59,468 nucleotides of DNA from an uncultured bacterium (GCA_966685145.1 CBKXXB010000002.1:1-59468); one strand, 5' to 3'. Positions 3,416 to 41,007 are shown, numbered from the stretch's first letter. The notes: generated by a model not told the origin, from the letters alone. Translations and numbers: made by a program.

Positions 3416-5549
3416 TTTCTTTCTCCCGGGCAGCAGCCTTCATACTGAGGTTTAATCTACCCTTTTCATCGATTGCTACAAGCTTGACTGTAACAAGGTC
3501 GCCCTCTTTGACTACATCACTAGGCTTATTGACTCGCTCTTCTTTCATCTCAGAAACATGCACCAAGCCGTCTTTGCCAGGCATAATTTGCACGAATGCA
3601 CCAAAGTCCATGACACTAACTACAGGGACGTTTTCATAGATCTTGCCCACTTCAGGTTCGGCAGTCAGGTGCTGAATGTATTGAATAGCGCCGTCGATTG
3701 ATTTCTTGTCAGGGCTGGCGATAAAAATTGTTCCATCATCTTTGATATCAATTTCGGCTCCTGTTTCGGCAATAATCTTGTTGATGGTCTCACCGCCCTT
3801 GCCGATAACCTCCCGGATTTTGTCCGGGTTGATTTTAATAGTTTGAACACGAGGGGCGTAAGGGCTTAATTCTTGACGCGGGCCTGAAATTGTCTCCAGC
3901 ATATGCTTCAAAATTTCGGCGCGGCCTTGCTTACCCTGTTCAAGAGCTTGGCGCAGTATATCTATGCCGAGGCCGTGAACCTTCATATCCATCTGGAGCG
4001 CCGTAATGCCCTTCTCTGTACCAGCTACCTTAAAGTCCATGTCTCCTGCAAAATCCTCAGCGTCAGCAATATCACTTAGGATGTACGGTTTGCCGTCTTT
4101 ACCAAGCATTAAGCCCATGGCTATGCCACTGACTGGAGCTTTAAGAGGAACGCCAGCATCCATAAGTGCAAGACAGCTTGAACAAACTGCCGCCATTGAA
4201 GTACTGCCGTTCTGGCTCATGATTTCCGTAACTGAACGGATAGCGTATGGGAATTCTGCTTCGTCAGGCATCACTGCAAGCAGTGCTCGCTCAGCAAGTG
4301 CGGAGTGGCCGATTTCACGGCGGCCCGGGCTGCCTAGTCGCCGTACTTCACCTACCGTATAACCTGGGGCGTTATAGTGGTGCATATACCGTTTCTCGGC
4401 GTCGTTGCGCTCCATAGTATCAAGCATCTGCGCGTAACTCATAGATGCCAGCGTCACAATATTCATAGCTTGCGTAACGCCTCTTGTAAACAAGCTTGAA
4501 CCATGTGCGCGCGGCAAGAAGTTGGTTTCGCTTGAAAGCGGTCGAATCTCGGATAACTTACGGCCGTCGGGACGGGTTTGTTCTTTGACAATACCTTCCC
4601 GGACATCATCATGAATAGCCATGTTGAAGGCCTCATCATAAGCAGCTTTGGCATCTGTAAAATCATCGCCGTATTTTTCCTGAAACTCCAGGTGCATAGT
4701 TTCACGCAGTTTTTGCACAAGAGTGTTGCGTTCCGGATAAGGAGCTCTAAGCGGTTGGCCGAGCTTGCCCTTTACCCAAGCATCAACTTCTTTTCGAACG
4801 TTTTCATCTGGTAAAACAAGTTCATATTCTTGAGACTCTACACCTATTTTTGCTACTAACTGCTTTTGAAGCTTAATAGCCGGCTGCATGGCAGTATGGG
4901 CAAACTGCAAAGCTTCGGCTATCTGTTCCTCAGTCACTTCGCTGGCCCCAGCCTCAACCATCATGATGGCGTCTTCGGTACCGGCTACCACTAGGTCAAG
5001 CGGACCTGCGTTTAATTGTTCAGGTGATGGGAAAGCTGTTAGTTTGCCATCTACGATACCAACACGTAATCCTGCAACAGGCCCTTCAAAAGGAGCGCCT
5101 GTCAGCATGAAAGCTGCGCTCATGGCAATCATAGCCACCATGTCAGGACGGAAGTTTGGGTCCATACTTAGAACCGTTGCTACGCCCTGGACCTCATGCC
5201 GGTAGCCTTTGGGCCACAATGGGCGAATTGGTCGATCAATCAGTCTGCCAATAAGCACCGCGTCGTCGCTCGGCCGACCTTCTCGCTTAATAAATCTGGA
5301 GCCGCTTATCTTACCGGCAGCGTAAAATTTTTCTTCATAATCAATAGAGAGCGGGAAGTAGTCCAGGTTTGTCACCGAACCCCTACCTACCATAGCTGTG
5401 GCAAGTACGACCGTATCACCGTATCGGGCCAGTACAGCGGCAGAGCTACGAAAACCGACACGGTTCACTTCAAGCGTCAGCGTGCGGCCGCACAAGTCTG
5501 TTTCTAATGTAATAATGTCTTTACCGAGCGGGTTAATTGTTTGTCCCAT
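3399..5549 (-). CDS. pnp: Polyribonucleotide nucleotidyltransferase (PNPase)
   Basis: 716 aa with two RNase PH-like halves, a KH region (IREVIGKGGETINKI) and a C-terminal S1 domain (VSVMDFGAFVQI). It sits directly downstream of rpsO, as in many bacteria. Confidence 0.95.
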   Translation of the reverse strand: MGQTINPLGKDIITLETDLCGRTLTLEVNRVGFRSSAAVLARYGDTVVLATAMVGRGSVTNLDYFPLSIDYEEKFYAAGKISGSRFIKREGRPSDDAVLIGRLIDRPIRPLWPKGYRHEVQGVATVLSMDPNFRPDMVAMIAMSAAFMLTGAPFEGPVAGLRVGIVDGKLTAFPSPEQLNAGPLDLVVAGTEDAIMMVEAGASEVTEEQIAEALQFAHTAMQPAIKLQKQLVAKIGVESQEYELVLPDENVRKEVDAWVKGKLGQPLRAPYPERNTLVQKLRETMHLEFQEKYGDDFTDAKAAYDEAFNMAIHDDVREGIVKEQTRPDGRKLSEIRPLSSETNFLPRAHGSSLFTRGVTQAMNIVTLASMSYAQMLDTMERNDAEKRYMHHYNAPGYTVGEVRRLGSPGRREIGHSALAERALLAVMPDEAEFPYAIRSVTEIMSQNGSTSMAAVCSSCLALMDAGVPLKAPVSGIAMGLMLGKDGKPYILSDIADAEDFAGDMDFKVAGTEKGITALQMDMKVHGLGIDILRQALEQGKQGRAEILKHMLETISGPRQELSPYAPRVQTIKINPDKIREVIGKGGETINKIIAETGAEIDIKDDGTIFIASPDKKSIDGAIQYIQHLTAEPEVGKIYENVPVVSVMDFGAFVQIMPGKDGLVHVSEMKEERVNKPSDVVKEGDLVTVKLVAIDEKGRLNLSMKAAAREKENGKNQ

Positions 5550-5682
5550 CTGTGGCCTTTCTGCGGCAGTCGTCTTCAGAGTGCAAATATACGGGCATAG
5601 CCCCTTGTGCTATCGTCGGGCAAGCGTATATCTGTTGCTCTGATGACGAACACCTAATCGTTTCGTTAATGTGCACAAGCTG

Positions 5683-5703
5683 AGTGTCTCCTTAAGAGAC
5701 ACT
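5683..5703 (-). promoter_or_regulatory. Stem-loop in the rpsO-pnp intergenic region (processing/attenuation candidate)
   Basis: A perfect 8 bp stem (AGTGTCTC/GAGACACT) with a 5 nt loop. No U-tract follows on the minus strand. Confidence 0.4.
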
Positions 5704-5717
5704 TGAGTCCATACAAA

Positions 5718-5984
5718 TTAGCGGCGGATACCGAGTTTCTTTATAAGATCAAGATATTGTTTACTATCTTTTTCGGCAATATATTTGAGGAGACGCTTGC
5801 GCTTGCCAACTGCTTGCAAGAGACCTCGACGCGCCATGTAATCATGCTTATTGTTCTTAAGATGAGCCGTAAGCTCTTTAATCTGCTCTGTTAATGCGCC
5901 CACTTGAACGGCACTGCTACCTGTGTCATTCTTCCCTGACTGTAGATCTTTGATAATACTCTGTTTCTTATCAGCTGAAATCAT
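5718..5984 (-). CDS. rpsO: 30S ribosomal protein S15
   Basis: 88 aa with GSSAVQVGALTEQIKELTAHLK and RRGLLQAVGKRKRLLKY. An AAGGAAG ribosome-binding site (RBS) lies upstream of the ATG. Confidence 0.95.
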   Translation of the reverse strand: MISADKKQSIIKDLQSGKNDTGSSAVQVGALTEQIKELTAHLKNNKHDYMARRGLLQAVGKRKRLLKYIAEKDSKQYLDLIKKLGIRR

Positions 5985-12246: not shown

Positions 12247-13560
12247 ATGGGAGCTCTAGGCGAAGTTATTCAGAATCCGTTAGCTAGATCAGCTGCCGTA
12301 GCTGGTGCGGAAGCTTTAGGGATCGTAGCTCTTACCACAATCTATAATCATCGCGAGCTGACGCACAACTCATTGAAGCTGGGCCGCGTTCTGCGTACAG
12401 TAGCCAGAACGGCAATGCGCGCAATAGGGATGAACCCTTACGTGTGGGCCTCAGTACACACCGTCCATCACTCCACACCTGATGCCAATCTGGTGCCGCT
12501 TCTTGAGGCAGCCGATTATTTAGAGTGGCGCGGCATACATTCTGAGGTGTCATCCCCGCCTATTCCGGACACTTTTGCCGGTCTGGACCCGGTAGCCGTC
12601 CTATCGCCTGAACAGGTAAAAGATATCGGCAGCTCCGCACGCAAACTAGTAGAGAATCGTTACGACGCACCCGATTCATATTCCGACGAGGAAGCAACTC
12701 GCTTACTTGATCCTGTAACCCCTAGGTACCTTTATGATGAGAGACCAAGATTCTTGAAGCGTATTCTTTCACGTCACAGAACCTTTAAAGAACCGATTTC
12801 TAATAAGCGTAGCCTGGAGTACCTGACTCCGGAACTACGCGACGCCCACTCTCCCGCACTGCATCCTAAAGGAGTAGTCGGAGTGTTCTTTGACAACGTG
12901 CATCTTTATAGTAAAGACGGTGAACATTTCAAAGACAACACCAACCGGCTGCCGCACCTTCAACAAGAGTCATCAGATAAAATCGGCGAAAAGCCAAAAT
13001 GGGGTCAGCGCTGCCTCATTATCGGTAATATTGCTGTGGCGGCAACTATGTTCGGAAGCCTTACCCTTCCAGCGTTAGCAGGATCGGTCCTAACAGGTTA
13101 CGCAATGACAGGTTTAATGGCTGCAGGCTTAAGAGGTGGCGGCAACCTTACCAACAGCTTCGGACACGGCGGCAAGGAGCCTATTAAGACCTTCTTGAGA
13201 GGTGTGCTCTACAAGGATTACAAACCTAGGCCCAAAGCAGACGGAACATTTGCAGCTAATGCGAAATCGTTAAGCCTTCCGACATTCGATGAAGTGGGCG
13301 GACAAGATGAACATCATGAAAATCCCGGCAGTATTGCCTACTCGAACAAAGAGGGCTTTAGAAGGTTTATTGAAGCACCTTTTGGTGTAGTGCTGGAATC
13401 CTTGGCAAACCGTAATATTGGCATACGGCACAGCGAGGGTTTCGGTCTTAAGCCTGGTGAGAGACGGCCGGATGAGGCATCGGAAGCCGTACTTAAACTG
13501 CAGGATGCCCGTATCATGACCATGCAGGGTCAGCTGCCGGAAAAGCAACAAGCAGCATAA
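12247..13560 (+). CDS. Divergent membrane fatty-acid desaturase-like protein (delta-9 type His boxes)
   Basis: His boxes HRELTH (aa 35-40) and HTVHH (aa 71-75) have the delta-9-like ~30 aa spacing. A partial third box is GGQDEHHENPGS (aa 351-362). Hydrophobic segments lie at the N-terminus and at aa ~256-295. Confidence 0.6.
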   Translation: MGALGEVIQNPLARSAAVAGAEALGIVALTTIYNHRELTHNSLKLGRVLRTVARTAMRAIGMNPYVWASVHTVHHSTPDANLVPLLEAADYLEWRGIHSEVSSPPIPDTFAGLDPVAVLSPEQVKDIGSSARKLVENRYDAPDSYSDEEATRLLDPVTPRYLYDERPRFLKRILSRHRTFKEPISNKRSLEYLTPELRDAHSPALHPKGVVGVFFDNVHLYSKDGEHFKDNTNRLPHLQQESSDKIGEKPKWGQRCLIIGNIAVAATMFGSLTLPALAGSVLTGYAMTGLMAAGLRGGGNLTNSFGHGGKEPIKTFLRGVLYKDYKPRPKADGTFAANAKSLSLPTFDEVGGQDEHHENPGSIAYSNKEGFRRFIEAPFGVVLESLANRNIGIRHSEGFGLKPGERRPDEASEAVLKLQDARIMTMQGQLPEKQQAA

Positions 13561-17802: not shown

Positions 17803-18399
17803 ATGGATAAAAACACTGCTCACACCAAACATTGGCGCTATCTCTACGAACGTCGCAGAAGGCGCATAAACGCACTCGGGATTAGTGCCAAGCAAATGGC
17901 CTGGAGCCAGGTTTTTTCCCTGGTCGGCTCTATCGTTGCAGGTGTATTGCTGGAAAGCAACAAAACTACGCTAGCGCTATTAGCGGGGGCATTTGTAATA
18001 CTGCCGGGGATTTTTGATTTGGATGGTTCGCTCGGTGCCGTATTGAGCGCAAAGATCAATCATCGGATGGAAAATCTAGAGGCTCGGGTTTGGCGCGTTT
18101 TCATAGGGAGCACGGCTTTTGCTTTACTCGTTGCAATCTTGGCCGGCTTTATCGTGGCCGGCGTTGGTGCGACCTTGGCTACTATATTCTTCAATGCGCA
18201 CTTCCGGGACGTGTTCTTAGCCGGCTTTGGAGCTATAGTCCTAAGCGCGGCAATAGGTTTCCCGATCATAGGCGCTTTAAGCGTATTTTTCCGTAAGCGG
18301 AATATGAACCCGGACGACGTCGTGGGGCCGATTGAATCATCGGTGTTTGATATTCTAACCGTCATTACTCTAACCGTGATGGTGAAGTGGATACTATGA
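17803..18399 (+). CDS. MgtE/SLC41-type divalent cation transporter membrane domain, half 1
   Basis: Five hydrophobic helices and a C-terminal motif NPDDVVGPIESSVFDILTV, resembling the PDN..P...S..D motif of MgtE/SLC41. There is no cytosolic N or CBS domain. Confidence 0.65.
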   Translation: MDKNTAHTKHWRYLYERRRRRINALGISAKQMAWSQVFSLVGSIVAGVLLESNKTTLALLAGAFVILPGIFDLDGSLGAVLSAKINHRMENLEARVWRVFIGSTAFALLVAILAGFIVAGVGATLATIFFNAHFRDVFLAGFGAIVLSAAIGFPIIGALSVFFRKRNMNPDDVVGPIESSVFDILTVITLTVMVKWIL

Positions 18400-18929
18400 A
18401 AAGTATAAGACTGCGCCAACTGTTATTTATTGTGCTTACTACTGCCGGTGCCTCATCCATAAGCCTGATAGGCGGCGTAGGCATTGAAGCCGTACAGGAA
18501 CATATATTGCCCCTCGTGCCACTAATCATTGCCCTGCCCGCTCTTAATACGATGGTTGGTGACTATGCGGCGATTATTGCCGCTCACGCATCAGACCCGG
18601 CAGAACGCATAGCCACTAAGCGCACATTAGCTAAGGCCGTAGCTAAAGCTATATGGGTCAACATAATTGGCGTGCTGCTCCTGAGCACTATAATTGCGAT
18701 GCAACGAGGCTACTTATTTACCGGGATCTTTCTGACGAAATTTGCAGCATTCGTTATCCTGTCCATGCTCGGTACCGTTTTTGCCATGTTGGTAATAACC
18801 GTTATCCTGGACAAGCTACTTGAACGCAAAAGGCTTAATCCCGATGACATCTTAATACCTATTGTTACCTCTGTAACGGACGTACTAATGCTTGGCCTGA
18901 TTGCCGTGGCAGCCTGGACCCTGTTCTAA
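18396..18929 (+). CDS. MgtE/SLC41-type divalent cation transporter membrane domain, half 2
   Basis: A paralog of the upstream gene with motif NPDDILIPIVTSVTDVLML. Its ATG at 18396 overlaps the upstream TGA stop (ATGA). Confidence 0.65.
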   Translation: MKSIRLRQLLFIVLTTAGASSISLIGGVGIEAVQEHILPLVPLIIALPALNTMVGDYAAIIAAHASDPAERIATKRTLAKAVAKAIWVNIIGVLLLSTIIAMQRGYLFTGIFLTKFAAFVILSMLGTVFAMLVITVILDKLLERKRLNPDDILIPIVTSVTDVLMLGLIAVAAWTLF

Positions 18930-19027: not shown

Positions 19028-19876
19028 TTAAGGGGCTAGCTGCACTATAGGTTTTGAAGTAGCGCCTATATATTTCAGCTCTTCACTGTTTGTAAAAACT
19101 ATGTAAGGGGTTCGGCCAATAGTGTACGCAATTTGATCATAACTGTGTGTAGCTGCTTGTATAGCTTTGCGTGCCTGCTCGGGAATAAAGCGGTACCCTT
19201 TTTCGGCTTCATTTTGCCATGCATGGTATCGATCAAGCTGGAAAAGCATGAAGTCTTCGAAAGCCCGGATATTGTTCTCTGCTTCTGAAGGCTGCAGACT
19301 TCGGAGCCTAAAGCGCTCCAGGTCTTCTGTGGGGAAATAGCACCGCCCGAGCTTATTGTCTTCTGCCATGTCTCTAATGAAATTAATCCACTGCATAGCC
19401 CTGCCTTGCATCTGGGCAAATGGCCATGCCTCCTCAGGCAGCTGCATTATCTTCGCCATCATAAGTCCGATTACTTCAGCCGAACCACCAACATAAGACA
19501 ATGTGTCGTCAAGTGTTGCATAATGTCTACCTTCCGTATCGGCTCGCATCGACTCCATAAATGACTCAATCCATTCATGGCTAAAACCGTATTTTGTAGA
19601 TACGTGAATAATATTCTTAGTCACACGCTCGTTGAGATTATCACCTTTGTTGAATGTTGTATCAAAATCCGGATCGGCCGCAGCCTCAAGCCAAAGGTCG
19701 TAGAGTTCATTGAACTGATTTTTTTGATGGGGCAACACGTCCACATAATCATCGGCAACTCGGACGAAACTGTACAGCCGGACAACGTCGTCGCGAATGT
19801 TCTTAGGGAAAAGATACGAACTCTTGTAGTAGGTTTTACTCCCCTTTTGAAAAATCGATTCTTCAAGCAGCGCCAT
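19028..19876 (-). CDS. Squalene/phytoene synthase family enzyme
   Basis: Two Asp-rich motifs, YSFVRVADDYVD and FIRDMAEDNKLGRCYFP; 282 aa. Confidence 0.8.
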   Translation of the reverse strand: MALLEESIFQKGSKTYYKSSYLFPKNIRDDVVRLYSFVRVADDYVDVLPHQKNQFNELYDLWLEAAADPDFDTTFNKGDNLNERVTKNIIHVSTKYGFSHEWIESFMESMRADTEGRHYATLDDTLSYVGGSAEVIGLMMAKIMQLPEEAWPFAQMQGRAMQWINFIRDMAEDNKLGRCYFPTEDLERFRLRSLQPSEAENNIRAFEDFMLFQLDRYHAWQNEAEKGYRFIPEQARKAIQAATHSYDQIAYTIGRTPYIVFTNSEELKYIGATSKPIVQLAP

Positions 19877-19884
19877 TAGTAGTT

Positions 19885-20964
19885 TTAACTGTGACGGGTA
19901 AGTATGTATTCTGCAAGACCCCGTAGGCTCTGAACGCCTGATTCACTCCAACGGTCCTGCTCGGCATCTAAAGCCTTGAGAGCTATTACCACTTCTTGTT
20001 CAGCCCGCTGTTTCGCATAATCAAGTGAGCCGCTGTTCATGACGATTTCCTTGCAACGTTCAAAGTCGGTCCGTGTCAGTTGTGCGTTCCCAAGCTGCTT
20101 GAGTAAGAACTTCTTATCACGGTACGGTGCATGGTTAAGAGCGTGAATGGTAAGCACGGTACGCTTGCCTTCCTTGATGTCATCCATTTGGCTCTTTCCG
20201 ATTTCTTGCTCGTCACCAAACATGCCAATGATATCGTCAGTTATTTGAAAGGCTTTGCCGGTATGTACTGCGTAATCGGTAATTGCGTCGGTATCCTGGC
20301 ACCCTGCTCCGGCCAGTACCATGCCTACGTGCAATGGGTTCAGAAAGCTGTAGTGCGCTGTCTTCCATTCAAGTACACGCTCAACAACATTCTCGTCAGC
20401 ACCCGGCACAAACTCGCTTAGTATGTCGTTGGTCTGCCCGTGCGCAGTCACCAGCATCGTCCGGTTAACTATACTTGTAACTTTCAGACGATTCTCCTCG
20501 GAAGCCGGTAGATTTGCAAGAATCATTTGGGCAGCATGAGCCCCACCAAGAGCGGCGTTAAGCGCCAGCGCCAAGCCGAAGTGATTAGCATCTCCTGAAA
20601 GCTCATGGCGACGGTGATAGTCAGCCAGTAACACGTGCGCACTAGGGCCACCGCGTCTCACTAGAGAGCGGTCCTGAATGTCGTCAATTATAAGAATATA
20701 GGCCTGGATCATTTCAAGAGCTCGTGCAGCCTGCAGAATCATTCGGGTATCTTTACCACCGGACATTTCATAACCCAAGCAGACCAGCGCACCCCTGATC
20801 CGCTTACCGCCGCGGCCTAGAATATCCAAGAATGTGTCGGTTGTCAGGCGCGCATAAGAACCGTATTGTTCAAGAGTACTTTTCTTAACGGCTCTGTTGT
20901 ACCCAACAATGTCTTTATCAATGGATCCTTGATACTTTTTAAGCGTACGCAAGAAGGCTTGCAT
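19885..20964 (-). CDS. Short-chain trans-polyprenyl diphosphate synthase (GGPP/FPP synthase-like)
   Basis: First Asp-rich motif (FARM) is ILIIDDIQDR with Tyr at position -5. Second Asp-rich motif (SARM) is QITDDIIGMFGD. The ATG at 20964 avoids overlap with the upstream gene. Confidence 0.85.
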   Translation of the reverse strand: MQAFLRTLKKYQGSIDKDIVGYNRAVKKSTLEQYGSYARLTTDTFLDILGRGGKRIRGALVCLGYEMSGGKDTRMILQAARALEMIQAYILIIDDIQDRSLVRRGGPSAHVLLADYHRRHELSGDANHFGLALALNAALGGAHAAQMILANLPASEENRLKVTSIVNRTMLVTAHGQTNDILSEFVPGADENVVERVLEWKTAHYSFLNPLHVGMVLAGAGCQDTDAITDYAVHTGKAFQITDDIIGMFGDEQEIGKSQMDDIKEGKRTVLTIHALNHAPYRDKKFLLKQLGNAQLTRTDFERCKEIVMNSGSLDYAKQRAEQEVVIALKALDAEQDRWSESGVQSLRGLAEYILTRHS

Positions 20965-21001
20965 GTCAGTTTGGCTGGTCTTATCACTCTGCTTCACGGG
21001 C

Positions 21002-21601
21002 TTACTCAAGTATACGCTTGTGGTGTAATTTGAGAGCTTTTTCAGCGTCATCTTTGAAGACCTCAATATCGTTACCTTCGTTTAGTAATACGATGTCTGC
21101 CCGTTCTTTAACCGCACTCATATTGAGAGTTGCAGCGTCGCCACTATGGGTCATTTCACGCTCTTCTTCGGCGAGAAATTCCTCGAATGTCTTATCGTGC
21201 TCTGCGTGGGTGCTGGCGCGTTCATGTAGATTTCGCTGAATGCGTTCATATCGAATCCTAGGATCGGCATCTACCCAAACCAGTGTTCCGCCTAATTCAT
21301 GCACGCGATCGGCTTCACCCGGATGGCGCAAACTACCCACGACGACACCCTTGTACTTGCCGGGGCTGGCATTAAAAAGTTCGATCGCCTTATCAACGAT
21401 TACGCCCATACCATACTCTCTTCGCCACTCAGAACTAAGCTTGGCTTTGTGTCCGCGGTCAATCGGCCACTCGCGAGCATGCAGCTCATCAAGAAACATT
21501 TCAGTAGCCGAAGCATGAAGGTAACCGTGACGTTCAACCAACATCAAGGCAACAGTATCTTTGCCGCTACCATTAGTTCCAGAAAGACCTATAATGTTCA
21601 T
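21002..21601 (-). CDS. P-loop nucleotide kinase (dNMP-kinase / dephospho-CoA-kinase-like)
   Basis: Walker A motif GLSGTNGSGKDT within 10 aa of the N-terminus; 199 aa. The gene sits immediately after rpoD. Confidence 0.6.
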   Translation of the reverse strand: MNIIGLSGTNGSGKDTVALMLVERHGYLHASATEMFLDELHAREWPIDRGHKAKLSSEWRREYGMGVIVDKAIELFNASPGKYKGVVVGSLRHPGEADRVHELGGTLVWVDADPRIRYERIQRNLHERASTHAEHDKTFEEFLAEEEREMTHSGDAATLNMSAVKERADIVLLNEGNDIEVFKDDAEKALKLHHKRILE

Positions 21602-27863: not shown

Positions 27864-29090
27864 TTAGTGCCACAGCTGGTTCATGCTTTGCTGCCAGTTG
27901 GCGCGCTCTTCAATCGCCCTTTGCAGATCTGAGTTAGCACGCTGCGTTAATTGCCTGTATCCTCCGCTGCTGCCAATAGCTTCATATTCAAGCTTCGGCT
28001 TTATCTTCTCCAGACCTTGCTCTTCGGCCATTTCGAGACAACTGTCATCACGCGGACGACATTGGTCCCCGAATTCCAGCCACTTGGCCACATTCTCATC
28101 ATATGGAAGCGTCATAGTGACGGCAATGCTTAAGCCGCGGTTCGTTTCATAGTCAAGCTGGTCAAAGATAAAGTTGCCTGTCGAGTAAACAATTAATTTA
28201 CCTTTATACACCTCCGTATTTTGTACCCAGTGGGGGCTATTTCCGATTAGAAATTCGGGCCCGCGGTCGATTATTCTGTGTGCGATACGCACTTGTTTGT
28301 CGTCAGCTCTAGGCTGGTACTCGGTCCCTACCTGCATAAAGGCAAACACTGGCATAACCCGAACATAACGGTCCATAACTTCAATTTCTCCTGGCTCAGG
28401 ATCGTATTCAAAGTAGTGCCAGGCGCAGAATGCTATCGGCAGCTTGCCTTTTACTTCTGTTTTGTCCTTCTTTTGTAGCCGGACCGGCCATGCCACTACT
28501 TTACAAATATCATCCTTTACCCGGGGGCTGTAGTTGCCCAACGTCTGTATACCGCCTTCTTCCAGCAATCTGACCGTTTCTTCATATCCCTCTTCGCCCA
28601 TGTCGCGGGTGTGGTTATTGGCTATATTGGCAACTATAGTGCCGAATTGGCGGCGCATAGCCGGTACGAACTCCGGACGACAGTTAAAGACAGTGTTTGC
28701 GACCTGTTGCCGGTAGGGTATGTTGTTCGTAGTCATGGGGCACTCGTGGTCGAACTCCCAAGCATCATACTGTTCCGGGTTAAAGGAACTGAACTTGCTG
28801 AATGGCTGGTTGTAATCAATGCTGCCGTCAGCCTGGCGGGCTTCGTTTTCCACGGCACGGGCAATGACAACAGTACCGCTGAATAAATACTTGCCATTCA
28901 CAGACTCGTACTGCAGTTCTTTTTTAGTCTCGCTGTTTTGAGATATAAGCGGTACGTTTACCGGAGCTTTGCCTGAACGCAGCAGCCAAAAGCCGGCTGC
29001 AGCAGCAATAAGCAGCAATGGCACAATCAGCCAGCGTTTTGATTTCTTCTGTGGCCGTCTGTACGACGGCCTATATGTGTCATACCTCAT
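27864..29090 (-). CDS. CapA/PGA_cap family metallophosphatase-like protein, membrane anchored (paralog 1)
   Basis: NIANNHTRDMGEEG motif and an N-terminal basic segment plus TM helix (KRWLIVPLLLIAAAAGFWLL). The ATG at 29090 was chosen to avoid overlap with the divergent gene. Confidence 0.75.
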   Translation of the reverse strand: MRYDTYRPSYRRPQKKSKRWLIVPLLLIAAAAGFWLLRSGKAPVNVPLISQNSETKKELQYESVNGKYLFSGTVVIARAVENEARQADGSIDYNQPFSKFSSFNPEQYDAWEFDHECPMTTNNIPYRQQVANTVFNCRPEFVPAMRRQFGTIVANIANNHTRDMGEEGYEETVRLLEEGGIQTLGNYSPRVKDDICKVVAWPVRLQKKDKTEVKGKLPIAFCAWHYFEYDPEPGEIEVMDRYVRVMPVFAFMQVGTEYQPRADDKQVRIAHRIIDRGPEFLIGNSPHWVQNTEVYKGKLIVYSTGNFIFDQLDYETNRGLSIAVTMTLPYDENVAKWLEFGDQCRPRDDSCLEMAEEQGLEKIKPKLEYEAIGSSGGYRQLTQRANSDLQRAIEERANWQQSMNQLWH

Positions 29091-29106
29091 ATATACTGAT
29101 ACAAGT

Positions 29107-29877
29107 ATGTCATATAGAAGACTCCTTATTCCAGTCATTTTAGTGGTCGCGCTTCTCGGTGTAGCTTTATTTTTCTTCCGTTCTCCGGCTGACATGCCGG
29201 CACCTTCAAACCACCAGCAGCAAGAACCTGCGCCGAACCAAACCGAACTCGAAAACCCTGAATCTGAGCAGCCCGTTACCAGCTTTAATAAGAATCAGCA
29301 TTCCATAGATGAGCTCGGCAGTATTTGGCAAATCGTGAACAAAAAACGCGCCCTGCCCGCTAACTATGTGCCCAGCGACTTGGTCGTACCTGATGTCAGG
29401 CTGCGCTTAGCTGCCTCTCACGAACAAATGAAAATCAGGAAAGTCGTTGAATCCGATCTTGCAGAAATGTTTAAGGCAGCGCAGCAAGATAGCGTGACGC
29501 TGGTATTCGGCAGCGGCTACCGTTCATATGCCCTGCAAAAACAGTTTTATGACAGCTACGTGGCTCGTGACGGCCAAGCTGAAGCCGATCGCTACAGCGC
29601 TCGTCCCGGTACGAGCGAACATCAGACAGGATTGAGTTTTGACGCGACCTCAACCAGCGGCAAATGTCATCTGGAAGTCTGCTTCGAGAACATGGACGAA
29701 GGAAAGTGGATAAAAGCAAATGCCCATAAATACGGTTTTATAATCAGGTATCCTGAAGGCAAAGAAGGAATAACTGGCTATCAATATGAACCTTGGCACC
29801 TACGTTATGTAGGCCGTGAACTAGCCGCCGAGATTAACCGAACCAATCAAACTCTAGAAGAATTTTTTGATCTTTAG
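29107..29877 (+). CDS. D-alanyl-D-alanine carboxypeptidase, VanY / peptidase M15B family
   Basis: SGYRSYALQ, ARPGTSEHQTGLSFD and EPWHLRYVG motifs, with an N-terminal TM anchor. The ATG at 29107 is preferred. Confidence 0.85.
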   Translation: MSYRRLLIPVILVVALLGVALFFFRSPADMPAPSNHQQQEPAPNQTELENPESEQPVTSFNKNQHSIDELGSIWQIVNKKRALPANYVPSDLVVPDVRLRLAASHEQMKIRKVVESDLAEMFKAAQQDSVTLVFGSGYRSYALQKQFYDSYVARDGQAEADRYSARPGTSEHQTGLSFDATSTSGKCHLEVCFENMDEGKWIKANAHKYGFIIRYPEGKEGITGYQYEPWHLRYVGRELAAEINRTNQTLEEFFDL

Positions 29878-29881
29878 CTAC

Positions 29882-30244
29882 TTACCACTGCGGCGATGCG
29901 CCTTCGGCTTGGCCGATAACTGAACCAGGCCCTACCATTCTAACCGTTGTATCTAGTGAACAACCGCCTAAATGTTCAGCTACTCTCGCAGCGTAAGATG
30001 GAAAATCTAAATCTTCTGCCACTATAAACGTATCCGAGTCAAAACCAATGTCCATTGTGCCATCCGGGTGATGCTCGATAGAGGTAGGATTGTGATAATA
30101 TGTTTTGCTGCCAACAAAGGATACCGGCAAGGGCAGGTCGTCTAATTCGTCGGCCGTAAGCGGCGGGCGAAAACCCAGGTAAAAGTAATCACTCGTTTCT
30201 CCCAACATTACTTCTCTAAGCTGCTCTGTGGTGTTCCCCATCAT
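29882..30244 (-). CDS. Hypothetical protein
   Basis: 120 aa, acidic, with no recognised motif. It lies between VanY and the second CapA paralog. Confidence 0.5.
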   Translation of the reverse strand: MMGNTTEQLREVMLGETSDYFYLGFRPPLTADELDDLPLPVSFVGSKTYYHNPTSIEHHPDGTMDIGFDSDTFIVAEDLDFPSYAARVAEHLGGCSLDTTVRMVGPGSVIGQAEGASPQW

Positions 30245-30308
30245 CTACTCCTCGCGTTATACTTGTTATTTTTTATCAACTGCTTACTGTTTGCAAGCAG
30301 GAGCATAA

Positions 30309-31700
30309 TCAATATTCCGTTGATGTAATAATCGGAACTTCTGTGAATTTGTTCAATAAAGCTTTGATGCGCTCAGCTTGAACTTCTACTGTAGTATTGT
30401 GGTGCGATTTGGCAATTAGGTTAGCTGCTTTATCTAGTGGGACCATAGTGAAACTGTGACGTGCAAGCAAATCAGCCTGGTTATGGCGAGCTGATTGTTC
30501 AGCCGTCCATTCGTAATGCTGGTAAACCGGCATGAAGCTGATTTTAGTAATTTTCTTACTCGACGTGTCTATGTCCATAACTGCGAAACCGCCTATCAGA
30601 TTCTCTATCTCAAGCTGAGAGTTTAGAAAATTTCCCAGAGAAAACCAAACCGGCACTTCTCTGCCATCGGTTGCTTTGACAAGTTTTACCGGTTGCAAGG
30701 CGTGTGGGCCATGGCCTACTATGGCGTCTGCCCCGGCGTCCGCTAACACTTGAGCTATCTGGTCCTGTTGCGCATTTATGTCCGCTGAATATTCCGTACC
30801 CCAACGCATACTGATCAACACGAAGTCCGCGTTCTCTTGTGCGGCGGCAATATCTGTTTTGGCCGCGGCTTCGTTATACATATCAACCCCGTAGGAATTG
30901 CCTAAAGGTTTATTTGTATAAGTCGTATAAGACAGGAATGCGAATTTCATCCCCTTCACGGTAAAAATACGCTGCTTTTTCTGCTCTTCGGGCGAGCGGT
31001 TAGCGCCGGCCACCGCCAATACGTTCTGACGATCGTCCCAAGCAGCTACGGTAGCATCAATCAAAGCCTGTCCTTTGTCATTAGTATGGTTAGTCCCCAG
31101 ATTAATGACGTTGCATCCAACCCCTTCAATGCCCCGGGCAAACTCTATGGGCGCGTTAAATACCGGGTAGCCGCTTATGCCGAACTGCTCTCCACCGGCG
31201 GGTGTCGCTTGGTTACAGAAGCGTATATCTGCCTTATCAAAGTAAGGCTTCATGTCTGACATCAAGCGCACATAGTCGTAACCTCCGCCTGCCTGCCTGG
31301 CATTCTTGTTAATAGATTCATGTCCGATCATGTCGCCTGTCGCAACAAGACGAATAGATGCATCGTTTTGCTGCGTCCGGCCCTGGAGCGGCTCAGCCGG
31401 AGCCTTAGGCCCAGTTGTCTCCAAGCGAGAACGTATATTGCGGTTTTTAATATATACGGCGGCACTCGCACTCCCGGCACCGATTAACAAAATCAGCACT
31501 GTCAGCACTACAGGCCAGCGTCTGCGTTTTGGCTTAGGCTGGTACTGCCGTTCAGTTGCGTCTTGCTGCCTCAAAGGAGCCTCAACTCTAGAAGATGCAC
31601 TTGCCGGTGTACGCGGAGGAGGTGCCGGTTGGTACGGTTCTGGCTGCGGCGAAGGACCAGCAGCGTCACGCTTACGCAATCGCTCGTAAATGTCGTCCAT
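30309..31700 (-). CDS. CapA/PGA_cap family metallophosphatase-like protein, membrane anchored (paralog 2)
   Basis: INLGTNHTNDKGQ motif, a Pro-rich N-terminal cytoplasmic segment, and a TM helix (WPVVLTVLILLIGAGSASAAVYI). Confidence 0.75.
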   Translation of the reverse strand: MDDIYERLRKRDAAGPSPQPEPYQPAPPPRTPASASSRVEAPLRQQDATERQYQPKPKRRRWPVVLTVLILLIGAGSASAAVYIKNRNIRSRLETTGPKAPAEPLQGRTQQNDASIRLVATGDMIGHESINKNARQAGGGYDYVRLMSDMKPYFDKADIRFCNQATPAGGEQFGISGYPVFNAPIEFARGIEGVGCNVINLGTNHTNDKGQALIDATVAAWDDRQNVLAVAGANRSPEEQKKQRIFTVKGMKFAFLSYTTYTNKPLGNSYGVDMYNEAAAKTDIAAAQENADFVLISMRWGTEYSADINAQQDQIAQVLADAGADAIVGHGPHALQPVKLVKATDGREVPVWFSLGNFLNSQLEIENLIGGFAVMDIDTSSKKITKISFMPVYQHYEWTAEQSARHNQADLLARHSFTMVPLDKAANLIAKSHHNTTVEVQAERIKALLNKFTEVPIITSTEY

Positions 31701-37060: not shown

Positions 37061-37744
37061 CTAAGAGACCTTGTTCGGTGGCGTCTTCGCGGACACCAGC
37101 TGCCAAATAACCATATATAAAGAACCGAGTACTATGAAAAAGGTGGTGGTCGTAACAAAAAACTGCGGGTCGGCTGACGGGTTTATGATACGGTCGGACA
37201 CATCAAACAGTATGCCAGCAGGGTTCACCAAAACATCCCAGGTGTTCCAGCGCAAGTACCGCCCAAGATAAATCGCAAAGCTGCAGGCCAGCAGCACTAG
37301 TCCGATGATGATATGGGCATCCTTTCTTCGAATACGGCCAAGAAGCGCTTTATGGACTAAAAATAAGCTTATGTAGCCCACGATATAGGCATTACAAATA
37401 AAGGAGAAGAACATAACCACGTCATATAGCAAGCCGACTTCACCGGTAGCGTGCAAATGTATAAGATCGCTTACTAAATAAAAACTGTTGGGCAGGAAAC
37501 CAAGCCATAGCGCCGTAATTATCAAATTAGGAGCATCAAGCCATGAGCTCTGCTTTAGTCGCTGGGCTAGCCACCAAGCTAGCAAGAGCGGTACCCAGGC
37601 CAGAAACAAATTCCAAAGCAGGAATGCATAGCGGTTATTACCGGCATCAATAGCTCGCGCAACAAACAGCCCGACACTGACAAAACTCGAGAGTAGTAAG
37701 GTTAGAATAAGCCTCTTTTGGGCGCCGCGCCTAAGCTGAGACAT
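37061..37744 (-). CDS. DUF1361-like integral membrane protein
   Basis: LLWNLFLAWVPLLLAWWL and several further TM helices; 227 aa. Confidence 0.6.
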   Translation of the reverse strand: MSQLRRGAQKRLILTLLLSSFVSVGLFVARAIDAGNNRYAFLLWNLFLAWVPLLLAWWLAQRLKQSSWLDAPNLIITALWLGFLPNSFYLVSDLIHLHATGEVGLLYDVVMFFSFICNAYIVGYISLFLVHKALLGRIRRKDAHIIIGLVLLACSFAIYLGRYLRWNTWDVLVNPAGILFDVSDRIINPSADPQFFVTTTTFFIVLGSLYMVIWQLVSAKTPPNKVS

Positions 37745-37908
37745 AGGAGGTATTATATCAATAAGGTGCCTTGTCTGTTAGCAGCCGTAAGATCGCGGGC
37801 ATTCCTACTCTTATTCATTCGAACATGTTTACGTGTTCATATTGGATAGTACTTACGGCAAGTCTGCGGAAGAACTATCAGTATGCCCATAGTTTATAAT
37901 GAGGAGTA

Positions 37909-38538
37909 ATGAATACCACTACTCGGGTGCTCGACGGCCTGCGCGGCAGCGTTAAGCTAGTCATGAATTATGTTGCGCGCTTGCTGAACTCTGTAAGCGG
38001 CGGACGACTTAAGCCTACCCATATAACTCTGGCCGCCGTGCTAGGGCATATGCTTGTCGCCTATCTCCTAGCCACTCGCCACCCTATATGGGCGGGAGGC
38101 CTTCTTATATTTTTTGGCTTGTTTGATGCTCTGGATGGAGAACTGGCCAGGTTACAGCAGCGGGTCACACCAGGCGGTATGTTGCTGGATTCTGTAAGCG
38201 ATAGAGTAAAAGAAATAATGCTTTATATTGGAGCAGCTTACTTTTTTGTAGTACTAGAGTATCCTTATGTGGCTGTTTGGGCCGTTGCCGCATGCGGAGC
38301 TTCAGTTCTAGTCAGCTATACCAATGCCTGGGGAGATGTAGTGCTGTCAACGCATAGCAGCAAAAAACACGAGATCAATAAATCCTTAAGGACCGGCTTG
38401 ATGACTTATGACGTACGTATATTCTTGTTTATTGCCGGACTCTTAACCAGCCTCTTGCCGGAGGTGCTTATTATCATTACGGTACTTTCTGCGTTCACGG
38501 CTCTTAGCCGAGTTATCCAAACCCTTCGAAAGCTCTAG
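37909..38538 (+). CDS. CDP-alcohol phosphatidyltransferase family protein
   Basis: Signature DALDGELARLQQRVTPGGMLLDSVSDRV, which is D-G-x2-A-R-x8-G-x3-D-x3-D with a slightly longer spacer. The protein is multi-TM. Confidence 0.85.
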   Translation: MNTTTRVLDGLRGSVKLVMNYVARLLNSVSGGRLKPTHITLAAVLGHMLVAYLLATRHPIWAGGLLIFFGLFDALDGELARLQQRVTPGGMLLDSVSDRVKEIMLYIGAAYFFVVLEYPYVAVWAVAACGASVLVSYTNAWGDVVLSTHSSKKHEINKSLRTGLMTYDVRIFLFIAGLLTSLLPEVLIIITVLSAFTALSRVIQTLRKL

Positions 38539-38541
38539 CGT

Positions 38542-39195
38542 ATGTACAAAATCGATCTGCACACTCACTCTGTTGCTTCCCCAGATGGAGGTATTTCAGC
38601 TGACCAATACCGGGCTGCCCTGTCTAGCGGTCTTGTCGACTATGTAGCCATCACCGACCATAATCGAATAGATTTTGCGCTCAGGCTTCATCAGGAAATA
38701 GGCAGCCAAATTATCGTAGGTGAAGAAATTATGTCATCAGGCGGCGAGATTATCGGTCTGTTCCTGACTAAACCTGTAGTTTCCGGGCTAACACCGCAAG
38801 AAACCATGCGACAAATCAAGGCTCAAGGGGGGCTTGTTTACATACCTCATCCCTTCGAAACAGTGCGTAAGGGCCTGCCATCTGCGGTACTGGAGGAACT
38901 TTATGATCACATAGATATGGTGGAGGTCTGCAACGGCCGCGCCTTTCTACAGAACCGTAGTCAGCAAGCGGTAGTATGGTCAAGACTCAATAATATTCTG
39001 CCTATAGCCAGCAGCGATGCGCACGGCTTAAGAGGCCTCGGTAAAACATTCACGTCTATTGATCATCTTCCTACCCGAGAAAATATTCTGGAACAGATGG
39101 TGAACGGCAAACTTTTAACCGAACGGCCAAACTTGCGGGCACTCCTATACCCTAGATATCACCGCATTCACAAAAAAGTACGGAGATACGCATGA
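38542..39195 (+). CDS. PHP-domain metal-dependent phosphoesterase
   Basis: IDLHTHSVASPDG, ITDHN, IPHPF and SDAHG motifs. Confidence 0.8.
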   Translation: MYKIDLHTHSVASPDGGISADQYRAALSSGLVDYVAITDHNRIDFALRLHQEIGSQIIVGEEIMSSGGEIIGLFLTKPVVSGLTPQETMRQIKAQGGLVYIPHPFETVRKGLPSAVLEELYDHIDMVEVCNGRAFLQNRSQQAVVWSRLNNILPIASSDAHGLRGLGKTFTSIDHLPTRENILEQMVNGKLLTERPNLRALLYPRYHRIHKKVRRYA

Positions 39196-39716
39196 ACGAG
39201 TGGTGGGAAGCATTTTGGTTCTTTTTGCCGGCCGGTATTGCCAATTTAGTGCCCGCGCTGGCAGCAAAAGTCCCGGGCCTCACTACCTGGAATACGCCTA
39301 TGGACTTTGGGCGGTCGTGGCGCGGTATTCGCATATTTGGTAATCATAAAACATGGCGGGGCATCGTTTCCGGAACATTTCTGGCAGCCCTGGTTGGCTT
39401 GTTCCAGTACCGTTTTATTGCACACAGTGCCGAATCTACTGGCTTCATAATCACCGCTACCGCCGCTATGGGCTGCGGTGCTTTGCTAGGTGATGCGCTC
39501 AAGAGTTTCTTTAAGCGGCGGCACAGGATAAGTGAGGGCAAAAGCTGGTTCCCTTTTGATCAGATTGATTACATTGCCGGCGGGCTGGCCCTGGTTTTAC
39601 TGCTAGTAGATTTAACGGCTGCGCAGATAGCCCGGATATTTGTTATCTACTTCGTGCTGCACCTGGTCGTAGGATACGTGAGTTATCTGGCAGGATTCAA
39701 AAAGACACCGGTTTAA
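39192..39716 (+). CDS. CDP-archaeol synthase (CarS, PF01864/DUF46) homolog
   Basis: WFFLPAGIANLVP...TPMDFGRSWRGIRIFGNHKTWRGIVSG and GALLGDALKSFFKRR...FDQIDY align by eye with archaeal CarS. Its ATG overlaps the PHP gene TGA stop (ATGA). Confidence 0.8.
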   Translation: MNEWWEAFWFFLPAGIANLVPALAAKVPGLTTWNTPMDFGRSWRGIRIFGNHKTWRGIVSGTFLAALVGLFQYRFIAHSAESTGFIITATAAMGCGALLGDALKSFFKRRHRISEGKSWFPFDQIDYIAGGLALVLLLVDLTAAQIARIFVIYFVLHLVVGYVSYLAGFKKTPV

Positions 39717-40435
39717 CCTGCTTTCACAAATGCCTCGACAGACCATCCACCAGTAATAAAGCCTTCATCAAACGAACTAAACAGGCCACCTGTTTGTGAG
39801 GGCATCTCCCTAAGCGCCTCCATCTTTTTTTGCATCAGACTCGGCGGAAGCTCAAAACATATATCACAGTCCTCACCCTTTACGACCGGAGGCTTATCAA
39901 TGTTATAAAAGATGTTTAGCTTCTTATCGGCAGACTGCAAATACTGCCGGTACTTCTGCTCTTCTACGACAGCATGGAATATCTGTATCGGCTTTCTTGA
40001 ATTGTTCATAGCTTGCGCTACCCATATCGAAACGGCGGAGTGATCTGGATGCCCCGTAAGACCGTCCGGGCCAAAAGTTATAAAAGTGTCAGGCTGGTAC
40101 TTCTGGACTAATTCCACAATGCACTCTACTGCCTTATTGGTGTCCGCTTTGGCACAGCCGCCGTCCGGAAAATCAAGCCAGTGATGATGTTTAACGCCTA
40201 TTACCTTGAGAGCCTTTGCCAATTCGTTTGCCCTGATTGTAGACATTTTAGCTAATGGCCAACGGTCAGGGTCTTGTGATCCGGCCTCACCTTTAGTGGC
40301 GGTTACACAAATTACCTTTTGCCCGTTTGCGATAGCCGCAGCAAACAAGCCTGCAGCCAAAAATGATTCGTCGTCCGGATGTGCCCAAACACCCATAATA
40401 GTACCGAGACTTTTAATATCTTCAGCTGTGGTCAT
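39713..40435 (-). CDS. PIG-L/LmbE family deacetylase
   Basis: GVWAHPDDESFLAAG and GHPDH motifs. Its stop overlaps the convergent CarS stop (TTTAA). Confidence 0.85.
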   Translation of the reverse strand: MTTAEDIKSLGTIMGVWAHPDDESFLAAGLFAAAIANGQKVICVTATKGEAGSQDPDRWPLAKMSTIRANELAKALKVIGVKHHHWLDFPDGGCAKADTNKAVECIVELVQKYQPDTFITFGPDGLTGHPDHSAVSIWVAQAMNNSRKPIQIFHAVVEEQKYRQYLQSADKKLNIFYNIDKPPVVKGEDCDICFELPPSLMQKKMEALREMPSQTGGLFSSFDEGFITGGWSVEAFVKAG

Positions 40436-40443
40436 ATTCTTAT

Positions 40444-41007
40444 TCAGGCAGCCTCCCTGCCCGTCAAGTTTAGCAATTTTATTTGTACCGGTGCGTCTTC
40501 TGCAGCAGCTATAGCCGGAGCAAACAGCCCGCTCTTTTCCAATTCGGCCTGACGCGGGAACAAATCGTCATAAACAGCTTGAGCAAGCCTTTCATCAAAT
40601 AACACTGTAGCCTGCATAGCCTGCCCTACGTCCCATGCGTGAATTAGTTGGTCGGCGCCTACTTCGCGTATATAGGTCATAACAGGCACATCGCCGTACG
40701 ATAAATGAGCAACACCGCTTTCCTTAGCAGCATGCACAGCCACTGTAGCGGCATCGGCGGCATGCTGCCAGGCAGAGGCGGCATCAGTTCTTAGCACATC
40801 GCCCTCATAACGATCTCCAACCTCTTGAATGGTTTTGCCTTTTATTATCTCGGGCACCCATAGAAGTTCGTAGACCATGTGATTAAGTAAAGTGCGCAAG
40901 TTCCACTCTGTACAGGGCGTGGGATTACCGAGATGTTCCGGCCTGATGTTACGTATACACGAGGTAGCATGCTGAATCGCTTTGGCAAATAAATCCTGAG
41001 TTTGCAT
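40444..41007 (-). CDS. TIGR03086-type DinB/mycothiol-dependent-isomerase-N-terminal-like metal-binding protein
   Basis: PTPCTEWNLRTLLNHMVYELLWVPEIIKGKTIQEVGDRYEGD, LIHAWDVGQA and SGLFAPAI match my recollection of the family consensus. Confidence 0.75.
   Translation of the reverse strand: MQTQDLFAKAIQHATSCIRNIRPEHLGNPTPCTEWNLRTLLNHMVYELLWVPEIIKGKTIQEVGDRYEGDVLRTDAASAWQHAADAATVAVHAAKESGVAHLSYGDVPVMTYIREVGADQLIHAWDVGQAMQATVLFDERLAQAVYDDLFPRQAELEKSGLFAPAIAAAEDAPVQIKLLNLTGREAA

Follow-up and report, generated by a model that had tools for sequence, protein, structure and literature searches.

How might a bacterium from a lineage thought to lack lipid synthesis give a new head group to a lipid that it cannot make? 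This question is raised by a three-gene operon in a stretch of 59,468 nucleotides (nt) of DNA from an uncultured bacterium (GCA_966685145.1 CBKXXB010000002.1:1-59468), which is hereafter called the window. The stretch was found in soil-metagenome DNA runs, and the host of the operon is a soil Saccharibacterium. All three genes lie on the plus strand. Gene 1 (37909-38538, 209 amino acids (aa)) encodes a CDP-alcohol phosphatidyltransferase of the clade of the archaetidylinositol-phosphate and phosphatidylinositol-phosphate synthases (AIPS/PIPS), which use an inositol-phosphate acceptor. Gene 2 (38542-39195, 217 aa) encodes a small metal-dependent phosphoesterase of the PHP fold with a polybasic C-terminal helix, and gene 3 (39192-39716, 174 aa) a CTP:lipid-phosphate cytidylyltransferase of the CarS family with five transmembrane helices. 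We propose that the three proteins act in the order gene 3, gene 1 and gene 2, so that a salvaged lipid would be activated, provided with a phosphorylated head group and finally dephosphorylated.

The junctions were read directly from the sequence. Genes 1 and 2 are separated by a 3-nt spacer (CTC TAG cgt ATG), while genes 2 and 3 share an ATGA overlap (gcATGAacg), and the coordinates agree exactly with a preliminary description of this DNA, which had claimed three plus-strand genes with this spacing. The G+C content of the cassette is unremarkable compared with that of the remainder of the window.

What kind of enzyme is encoded by gene 3? The preliminary description had aligned it by eye, along its whole length, with archaeal CarS, and the profile searches bear this out. 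Gene 3 matches the CarS-like family PF01864 with 97.1 bits (gathering threshold (GA) 22), virtually end to end (residues 7-172 of 174, profile positions 8-173 of 175), and the hidden Markov models do not assign it elsewhere. Its score on the NCBIfam equivalog NF003114 is 137.2 bits, just under the cutoff of 148. By these scores, gene 3 is a member of the PF01864 family that lies outside the archaeal CarS equivalog set. Of the solved structures, only that of the A. pernix CarS (5GUF) is a significant match by sequence; it aligns over the full length with an E value of 2e-12. In this alignment, the gene 3 motif S-F-F-K-R-R...F-D-Q-I-D-Y pairs with S-F-V-K-R-R...L-D-Q-L-D-F of ApCarS, and the residues of the CTP/metal-binding core (G-D...S-x-x-K-R...D-Q-x-D), namely D101, S105, K108, R109, D123, Q124 and D126, align with their ApCarS counterparts; the roles of these residues are assigned from the alignment only. 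The core motif residues are invariant or at least 95% conserved among 45-78 homologues, and the invariant core comprises D38, K53, R56, D101, S105, K108, R109, W119-Y127 (including D123, Q124 and D126) and H157. Consistently, the AlphaFold2 (AF2) model of gene 3, with a mean predicted local distance difference test (pLDDT) score of 94.5, contains five helices and adopts the CarS fold: Foldseek superposes it on 5GUF with template-modelling (TM) scores of 0.74/0.81 and a root mean square deviation (rmsd) of 2.4 Å over 157 columns.

The further statement that gene 3 is unrelated to bacterial CdsA proved too strong. The second-best structural match is TmCdsA (4Q2E; TM 0.40, probability 0.87), and a local match to the CdsA family PF01148 (27.3 bits; residues 52-113, profile positions 169-230 of 264) falls on the catalytic loop. 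The full-length CdsA architecture is absent, as the score on the E. coli-type CdsA model NF008635 is 22.8 bits against a cutoff of 385. Gene 3 is thus a distant CdsA homologue within the same CTP-transferase superfamily, but is clearly of the CarS type and not of the CdsA type. Public databases already label it [quoted passage not shown]; in the literature searched, no paper was found to connect CDP-archaeol synthase with Patescibacteria or to assign the PHP gene.

Gene 1 matches PF01066 with 55.9 bits (GA 22), and the signature D-x2-D-G-x2-A-R...G-x3-D-x3-D is intact (D73, D76, G77, A80, R81, G90, D94 and D98), in agreement with the CDP-alcohol phosphatidyltransferase signature noted earlier. 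Among the curated NCBIfam models, the best are the AIP synthase NF040950 (87.8 bits, cutoff 180) and the PIP synthase NF045883 (64.7 bits, cutoff 170), followed by the Bacteroides BT_1523 type (61.3 bits), the di-myo-inositol-phosphate-phosphate (DIPP) synthase (51.2 bits), pssA (24.9 bits) and pgsA (21 bits). The same ranking of AIPS and PIPS over pgsA and pssA was obtained for eight orthologues from other loci, and the transferases of deeper-branching Patescibacteria reach 145-159 bits on the AIPS model. The best solved relative is the Renibacterium PIP synthase (5D91). We aligned the residues of gene 1 with those of the Renibacterium enzyme, AF2299 and DIPP synthase fragments. In the PIP synthases, the acceptor phosphate is bound by R153 and R191 of RsPIPS and by R155, R195 and S132 of MtPIPS (PMC4634129). 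S136, R170 and R201 of gene 1 align with S132, R155 and R195 of MtPIPS, and across 64 homologues their conservation is 95% or more.

For gene 2, the preliminary description had named a PHP phosphoesterase. The profile scores are divided on this: PHP_C (PF13263) reaches 24.6 bits (GA 21.3), the match to PF02811 itself, at 20.1 bits, stays below its GA of 26.4, and the CehA/McbA metallohydrolase model scores 54.7 bits against a cutoff of 80. It is the structure model that confirms the fold. The metal-ligand set is complete, with H7, H9, D15, H40, H103, D159 and H161 invariant and E69 at least 90% conserved, and the other invariant residues are D5, D39, E62, E128, N131 and R133. The AF2 model (pLDDT 95.1) has the PHP fold, and its best Foldseek matches are 3E38, 7UG9, 2ANU and 2YB1 (E values from 3e-11 to 7e-6), a set that includes uncharacterised PHP phosphoesterases (3E38 and 2ANU), RNase AM and the pAp phosphatase Cv1693. 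The last helix is strongly basic: over the final 22 aa, the net charge has a median of +7 in 67 homologues. Such a polybasic tail suits an enzyme that works at an anionic membrane surface. The PHP protein is also the best conserved of the three, with 60-70% identity among its top matches. From this context, gene 2 is a candidate PIP phosphatase.

Is the cassette a fixed unit? We scanned one genome per species and obtained 189 CarS-like relatives, of which the best 80 loci were examined. Almost all of these are from Saccharibacteria, and some are from the Microgenomates group, Levyibacteria, Roizmanbacteria and Paceibacterota. The trio is colinear and in the same order in 59 of the 80 loci, where most junctions fall in the range from -9 to +12 nt. 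It is kept even where all flanking genes differ, for example in loci L038, L066, L068 and L073-L076, and it persists in other Patescibacteria beyond Saccharibacteria. The transferase gene is instead divergent in loci of the Levyibacteria, Roizmanbacteria and Paceibacterota type. This arrangement is seen in L046, L056, L059, L062 and L063, where the PHP and CarS-like genes can have a further gene between them. One further locus, L052 (DATLEQ010000069.1), is labelled Candidatus Limnocylindrales (Chloroflexota), yet shows the full Saccharibacteria order of ArgRS, DUF1361, cassette and PGI, so that the contig may have been misbinned in the database entry.

The genes next to the cassette in relatives then point to the class of lipid involved. 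Among 150 immediately flanking proteins, the recurrent lipid families are DAGK_cat (seven), DgkA (two) and extra CDP-alcohol transferases (four). A DAGK_cat/YegS_C lipid kinase lies between the PHP and CarS-like genes in L046, L059 and L062, and a DAGK_cat kinase abuts the CarS-like gene in L008, L034, L065 and L079. In L065 (3746-7558), the order is a phospholipase D (PLD)-like gene, phosphatidylserine decarboxylase (Psd), PssA, the CarS-like gene and a DAGK_cat lipid kinase, and here PssA scores 132.7 bits, above its equivalog cutoff of 107. A second CDP-alcohol transferase occurs in L008 and L058, the latter also with a PLD gene. In L079, a fusion protein (4758-5837, plus strand) joins an N-terminal pgsA-like transferase (80.4 bits) to a C-terminal HAD phosphatase of the YqeG/GEP4 type (73.5 bits); its gene is flanked by that of a DAGK_cat lipid kinase and by the CarS-like gene. 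Direct support for the logic of transfer followed by dephosphorylation comes from this fusion, in which another phosphatase family fills the slot of the PHP protein. Judging from the kinase, PssA, Psd, PLD and fusion neighbours as a whole, the CarS-like enzyme appears to serve these bacteria as their general CDP-lipid synthase, with diacylglycerol or phosphatidic acid (PA) as the starting material. In two loci (L063:5040-7829 and L035:4192-5211), a 320-340-aa protein without a Pfam family lies between the PHP and CarS-like genes, the position held elsewhere by the kinase, and the gene after the CarS-like one in L063 is Mur-ligase-like.

We therefore propose the following pathway. First, gene 3 would join CTP and a lipid phosphate to form a CDP-lipid (CDP-diacylglycerol, CDP-DAG) and pyrophosphate, doing the job that is held by CdsA in ordinary bacteria. 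Its substrate would most likely be PA, either derived from the host or made by a kinase from scavenged diacylglycerol. Second, gene 1 would move the phosphatidyl group to a phosphorylated alcohol, most likely L-myo-inositol-1-phosphate, yielding phosphatidylinositol phosphate (PIP) and CMP. Finally, gene 2, which its polybasic helix would keep at the anionic membrane, would remove the terminal phosphate and leave a phosphatidylinositol (PI)-type lipid. The conserved operon, the Arg pair of gene 1 and the L079 fusion all support the logic of activation, transfer and dephosphorylation that had been suggested from the window, and the accompanying idea of lipid re-activation and remodelling gains support from other Patescibacteria, in which diacylglycerol kinase, PssA, Psd and PLD-type genes are neighbours of the CarS-like gene. 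As a whole, the route from PA through CDP-DAG and PIP to a PI-type lipid seems to us moderately probable; we are more confident of the operon and of gene 3 as a CDP-lipid synthase, and less so of the acceptor and of the step assigned to the PHP protein.

Several observations weigh against this salvage pathway, and some of them concern the acceptor. Gene 1 stays below every equivalog cutoff, so that AIPS/PIPS is its closest clade and not a certified equivalog. Because the top models of both gene 1 and gene 3 are archaeal and yet neither gene reaches the equivalog cutoff, the substrates of the two membrane enzymes are not readable from their families. Within the gene 1 family, the first Arg of the RxxR motif of PIPS is replaced by Tyr or Phe, and K135 of MtPIPS by Asn. 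Since the Arg pair is kept while these two positions are changed, the residues speak for an acceptor that carries a phosphate, without singling out inositol phosphate. Inositol-1-phosphate synthase was not seen among the open reading frames (ORFs) scanned in the window, and the myo-inositol-1-phosphate synthase MIPS is not among the ten cassette neighbours of 340-430 aa in relatives, which are GH18, GH15, an AI-2E transporter, a Mur ligase, alanine racemase, GSDH, the CDP-OH-HAD fusion and proteins without a family. The other points concern the remaining steps and the distribution of the genes. AfCarS discriminates against PA and fails to complement an E. coli cdsA mutant (PMC9385802). No lipid phosphatase is found among the closest solved PHP relatives of gene 2, which act on nucleotides or RNA or are uncharacterised, and four loci (L008, L014, L072 and L077) hold the transferase and CarS-like pair without the PHP gene. 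Moreover, the published annotation tables of Southlakia epibionticum ML1, a cultivated species and the only genetically tractable Saccharibacterium, list no PF01864, PF01148, PF00781 (DAGK_cat) or MIPS, although these tables are possibly incomplete. Its single CDP-alcohol transferase, SEML1_0297, is non-essential (Wang et al. 2023 supplements, PMC10633639). The absence of the cassette families from these tables indicates that the cassette is an accessory trait, mainly of environmental lineages.

Could the same architecture, acting on the same lipid, use another phosphorylated acceptor? With glycerol-3-phosphate, for example, the product would be a phosphatidylglycerol (PG)-type or other phospholipid. 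The missed AIPS and PIPS cutoffs leave room for this, as do the Arg pair, which speaks for a phosphate only, and the loss of half of RxxR and of the Lys that contacts inositol. The lack of a MIPS gene near any cassette examined points the same way, and the L079 fusion shows PG-type chemistry together with a CarS-like enzyme in relatives. The profile scores, however, speak against it: pgsA and pssA reach only 21 and 24.9 bits, as compared to 51-88 bits for AIPS, PIPS, BT_1523 and the DIPP synthase, all four of which use inositol-1-phosphate, and this ranking recurs in the eight orthologues. In addition, relatives with another head group carry a recognisably different transferase, pgsA-like in L079 and PssA in L065. 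We accordingly consider another acceptor unlikely, and retain L-myo-inositol-1-phosphate as the favoured acceptor in the second step of the salvage pathway.

The PHP protein might instead act upstream, as a phosphodiesterase resembling phospholipase C or D that strips host phospholipids to diacylglycerol or PA for the kinase and the CarS-like enzyme. The PHP fold does include the diesterases RNase AM and EndoQ, the order of PHP, lipid kinase and CarS-like gene in loci of the Levyibacteria and Paceibacterota type would be the order of the reactions, and the polybasic tail fits any role at a membrane surface. On the other hand, a transferase of this clade is expected to leave a phosphorylated product, for whose dephosphorylation the operon encodes no other phosphatase. 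In L079, the corresponding slot belongs to a HAD phosphomonoesterase that forms one protein with the transferase, and head-group stripping is the task of separate PLD-type genes in L058 and L065. We regard an upstream role of gene 2 as improbable, and place it at the final, dephosphorylating step.

The question of the lipid itself is raised by the families of genes 1 and 3. In a true archaeal-type pathway, gene 3 would activate a glycerol phosphate with geranylgeranyl-type chains in ether or ester linkage, the AIPS-like enzyme would make an archaetidylinositol-phosphate-like lipid, and the PHP protein would dephosphorylate it. CarS and AIPS are the top curated models for genes 3 and 1, with AIPS scores of 145-159 bits (cutoff 180) in the deeper-branching Patescibacteria, and characterised CarS prefers geranylgeranyl chains while tolerating ester bonds and a glycerol-3-phosphate backbone (PMC9385802). 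The same window also contains a gene for a short-chain prenyl diphosphate synthase (19885-21066; PF00348, 175.6 bits), the first of a minus-strand pair (19028-21066) whose second member encodes a squalene/phytoene synthase (PF00494, 160.5 bits). This polyprenyl synthase has a Tyr at position -5 of its first Asp-rich motif DDIQD and scores best on models of geranylgeranyl diphosphate (GGPP) synthases. The second Asp-rich motif of the enzyme is degenerate (DDIIG), however, and its pairing with the squalene/phytoene synthase suggests C30/C40 hydrocarbons as products, not glycerol ethers. The enzymes of archaeal core-lipid synthesis are likewise missing from the neighbourhood: the ORFs scanned in the 59-kilobase window include no geranylgeranylglyceryl phosphate synthase (GGGPS), no UbiA-type digeranylgeranylglyceryl phosphate synthase (DGGGPS) and no glycerol-1-phosphate dehydrogenase (G1PDH), nor cdsA, plsX/Y/C or MIPS, and neither UbiA nor GGGPS is among the 25 most frequent families of the 150 flanking proteins. 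The recurrent partners are instead diacylglycerol kinases, a bacterial-type PssA, Psd and PLD. We infer that the lipid is of the diacyl and not of the isoprenoid class; the term “archaeal-type”, under which the cassette had been described, applies to its protein families, not to its lipids. A full archaeal-type pathway appears very unlikely, and we give just as little weight to a retained isoprenoid preference that would lead to archaetidylinositol-like or mixed isoprenoid glycerophospholipids, with GGPP possibly supplied by the GGPP-synthase-like gene of the window. A soluble osmolyte resembling di-myo-inositol phosphate was rejected as the product of the cassette, because the cytidylyltransferase here is a membrane enzyme of the CarS type and not a soluble nucleotidyltransferase.

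The isoprenoid gene pair is in itself unusual for a genome thought to lack lipid synthesis, and no desaturase or cyclase lies nearby. Elsewhere in the window (12247-13560, plus strand), a 437-aa membrane protein has a weak match to the fatty-acid desaturases (24.6 bits, GA 29.7) and could, judging from this match, modify scavenged acyl chains.

Which signals and neighbours accompany the cassette in the window? A perfect TATAAT (37895-37900) lies 8 nt before the ATG of gene 1; GAGGAG (37901-37906) comes immediately after it and leaves 2 nt to the start codon. These possible promoter and translation signals (37895-37908, plus strand), read from the sequence, are weak; their spacing would fit a leaderless or very short-leader transcript. 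A consensus promoter scan found nothing above chance and, because the -35 element is poor, called no plus-strand promoter at 37895-37908. Divergently, 164 nt upstream, lies the gene of a DUF1361 integral membrane protein (37061-37744, minus strand; PF07099, 128 bits). It adjoins the cassette in 45 of the 80 loci, and ArgRS is also present in 43 of these 45, whereas in the other two, L006 and L030, the upstream sequence is too short to judge. Since nearly all such loci also hold ArgRS, the linkage of DUF1361 to the cassette is inseparable from conserved gene order.

Downstream and convergent, a deacetylase gene of the PIG-L/LmbE family (39713-40435, minus strand; PF02585, 107.6 bits) has a stop codon that overlaps that of gene 3, which ends in TTAA, so that the two genes have their stop region in common. 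The PIG-L protein scores below the cutoff of each of the BshB2, Mca and MshB models. Its gene is present in 29 of the 80 loci, all inside the same syntenic block, and an action of the protein on GlcNAc-inositol-type compounds is speculation. We considered both the PIG-L and the DUF1361 genes as parts of the system and did not retain them, as their membership is unproven and they co-occur with the cassette only within the conserved block that runs from ArgRS to PGI. Beside the deacetylase lies a TIGR03086-family protein (mycothiol-type, DinB-like; 108 bits, cutoff 83), and this pair (39713-41007, minus strand), which directly follows the cassette, has an actinobacterial flavour. Farther away, the window holds two PGA_cap (CapA-like) paralogues (27864-31700, minus strand), with no CapB or CapC partner among the ORFs scanned, and two adjacent, overlapping, half-size MgtE-domain genes of 198 and 180 aa (17803-18929, plus strand) without the usual cytosolic sensor domains.

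What would the cassette mean for these bacteria? According to a 2024 perspective, the mechanisms of lipid uptake and processing in Patescibacteria have not been identified (PMC11665869). For organisms thought to be without lipid synthesis, the operon offers a concrete and widespread candidate, open to experiment, for solving the part of this problem that concerns the head group. The few cultivated Saccharibacteria grow on Actinobacteria (PMC10633639), and some clades of Actinobacteria, of which Mycobacterium is the best studied, make PI-based lipids (PMC6031116). The making or remodelling of PI could therefore bear on the epibiotic lifestyle. A CarS-family enzyme is normally regarded as a marker of the archaeal side, and here it stands in clusters with bacterial-type lipid enzymes. 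If gene 3 uses PA, the CarS/CdsA split is no clean boundary between the domains; if the isoprenoid alternative were true, the cassette would show that the lipid divide between bacteria and archaea has been crossed naturally in a lineage alive today. The PHP protein, in turn, is a candidate for the PIP/AIP phosphatase step, for which no enzyme has been identified in actinobacteria and archaea (PMC4634129, PMC9385802). We consider it about evenly balanced whether the CarS fold, and not CdsA, provides the routine CDP-DAG synthase of much of the Patescibacteria, with the small PHP proteins as a new class of PIP phosphatase.

How does the cassette compare with known systems? Bacterial CdsA (Thermotoga 4Q2E, PF01148) shares the CTP-transferase superfamily with gene 3 and probably catalyses the same reaction. 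Nevertheless, gene 3 matches the CdsA profile over 62 residues only and the fold with a TM score of 0.40, and it has 174 aa and five helices, as compared to the 262-267 residues of the solved TmCdsA chains. A conversion of scavenged PA through CDP-DAG to PI was predicted for a soil Saccharibacterium by Starr et al. (2018) from automated annotation (PMC6031116).

The archaeal route to archaetidylinositol (CarS 5GUF or A. fulgidus AF1740, and AIP synthase) uses the same enzyme families in the first and second steps, and follows the same three-step logic via a phosphorylated intermediate (PMC9385802). The cassette differs in that its host is bacterial, in that genes 1 and 3 fall below the archaeal equivalog cutoffs, and in that archaeal core-lipid genes were found neither among the window ORFs scanned nor among the recurrent neighbours; the partners in relatives are diacylglycerol kinases, PssA, Psd and PLD. 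It also forms one operon that includes the PHP phosphatase gene.

The actinobacterial PI pathway (CdsA and PgsA1 of M. tuberculosis; Renibacterium 5D91) probably has the same chemistry and the same kind of lipid, and gene 1 keeps both the CDP-alcohol signature and the equivalents of MtPIPS S132, R155 and R195 (PMC4634129). In contrast, the cassette would perform the activation with a 174-aa, five-helix enzyme of the CarS type instead of the larger CdsA, its gene 1 lacks half of RxxR, and a phosphatase candidate is encoded in the operon. Prokaryotic PI synthesis proceeds via PIP, and in most lineages the phosphatase has not been identified (PMC4634129, PMC9385802).

A further known system is the BT_1522-BT_1526 cluster of Bacteroides thetaiotaomicron, in which a PIP synthase and a PIP phosphatase are likewise clustered, and for which knockouts have shown that the phosphatase is required (PMC9246714). 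The Bacteroides cluster contains MIPS (BT_1526), which was not found with the cassette, and has no gene for a CDP-lipid synthase. Its phosphatase, BT_1525, belongs to the PgpA family, whereas the candidate phosphatase of the cassette is a PHP protein. The PHP protein would therefore be a non-orthologous alternative to the PgpA-type enzyme at the same step.

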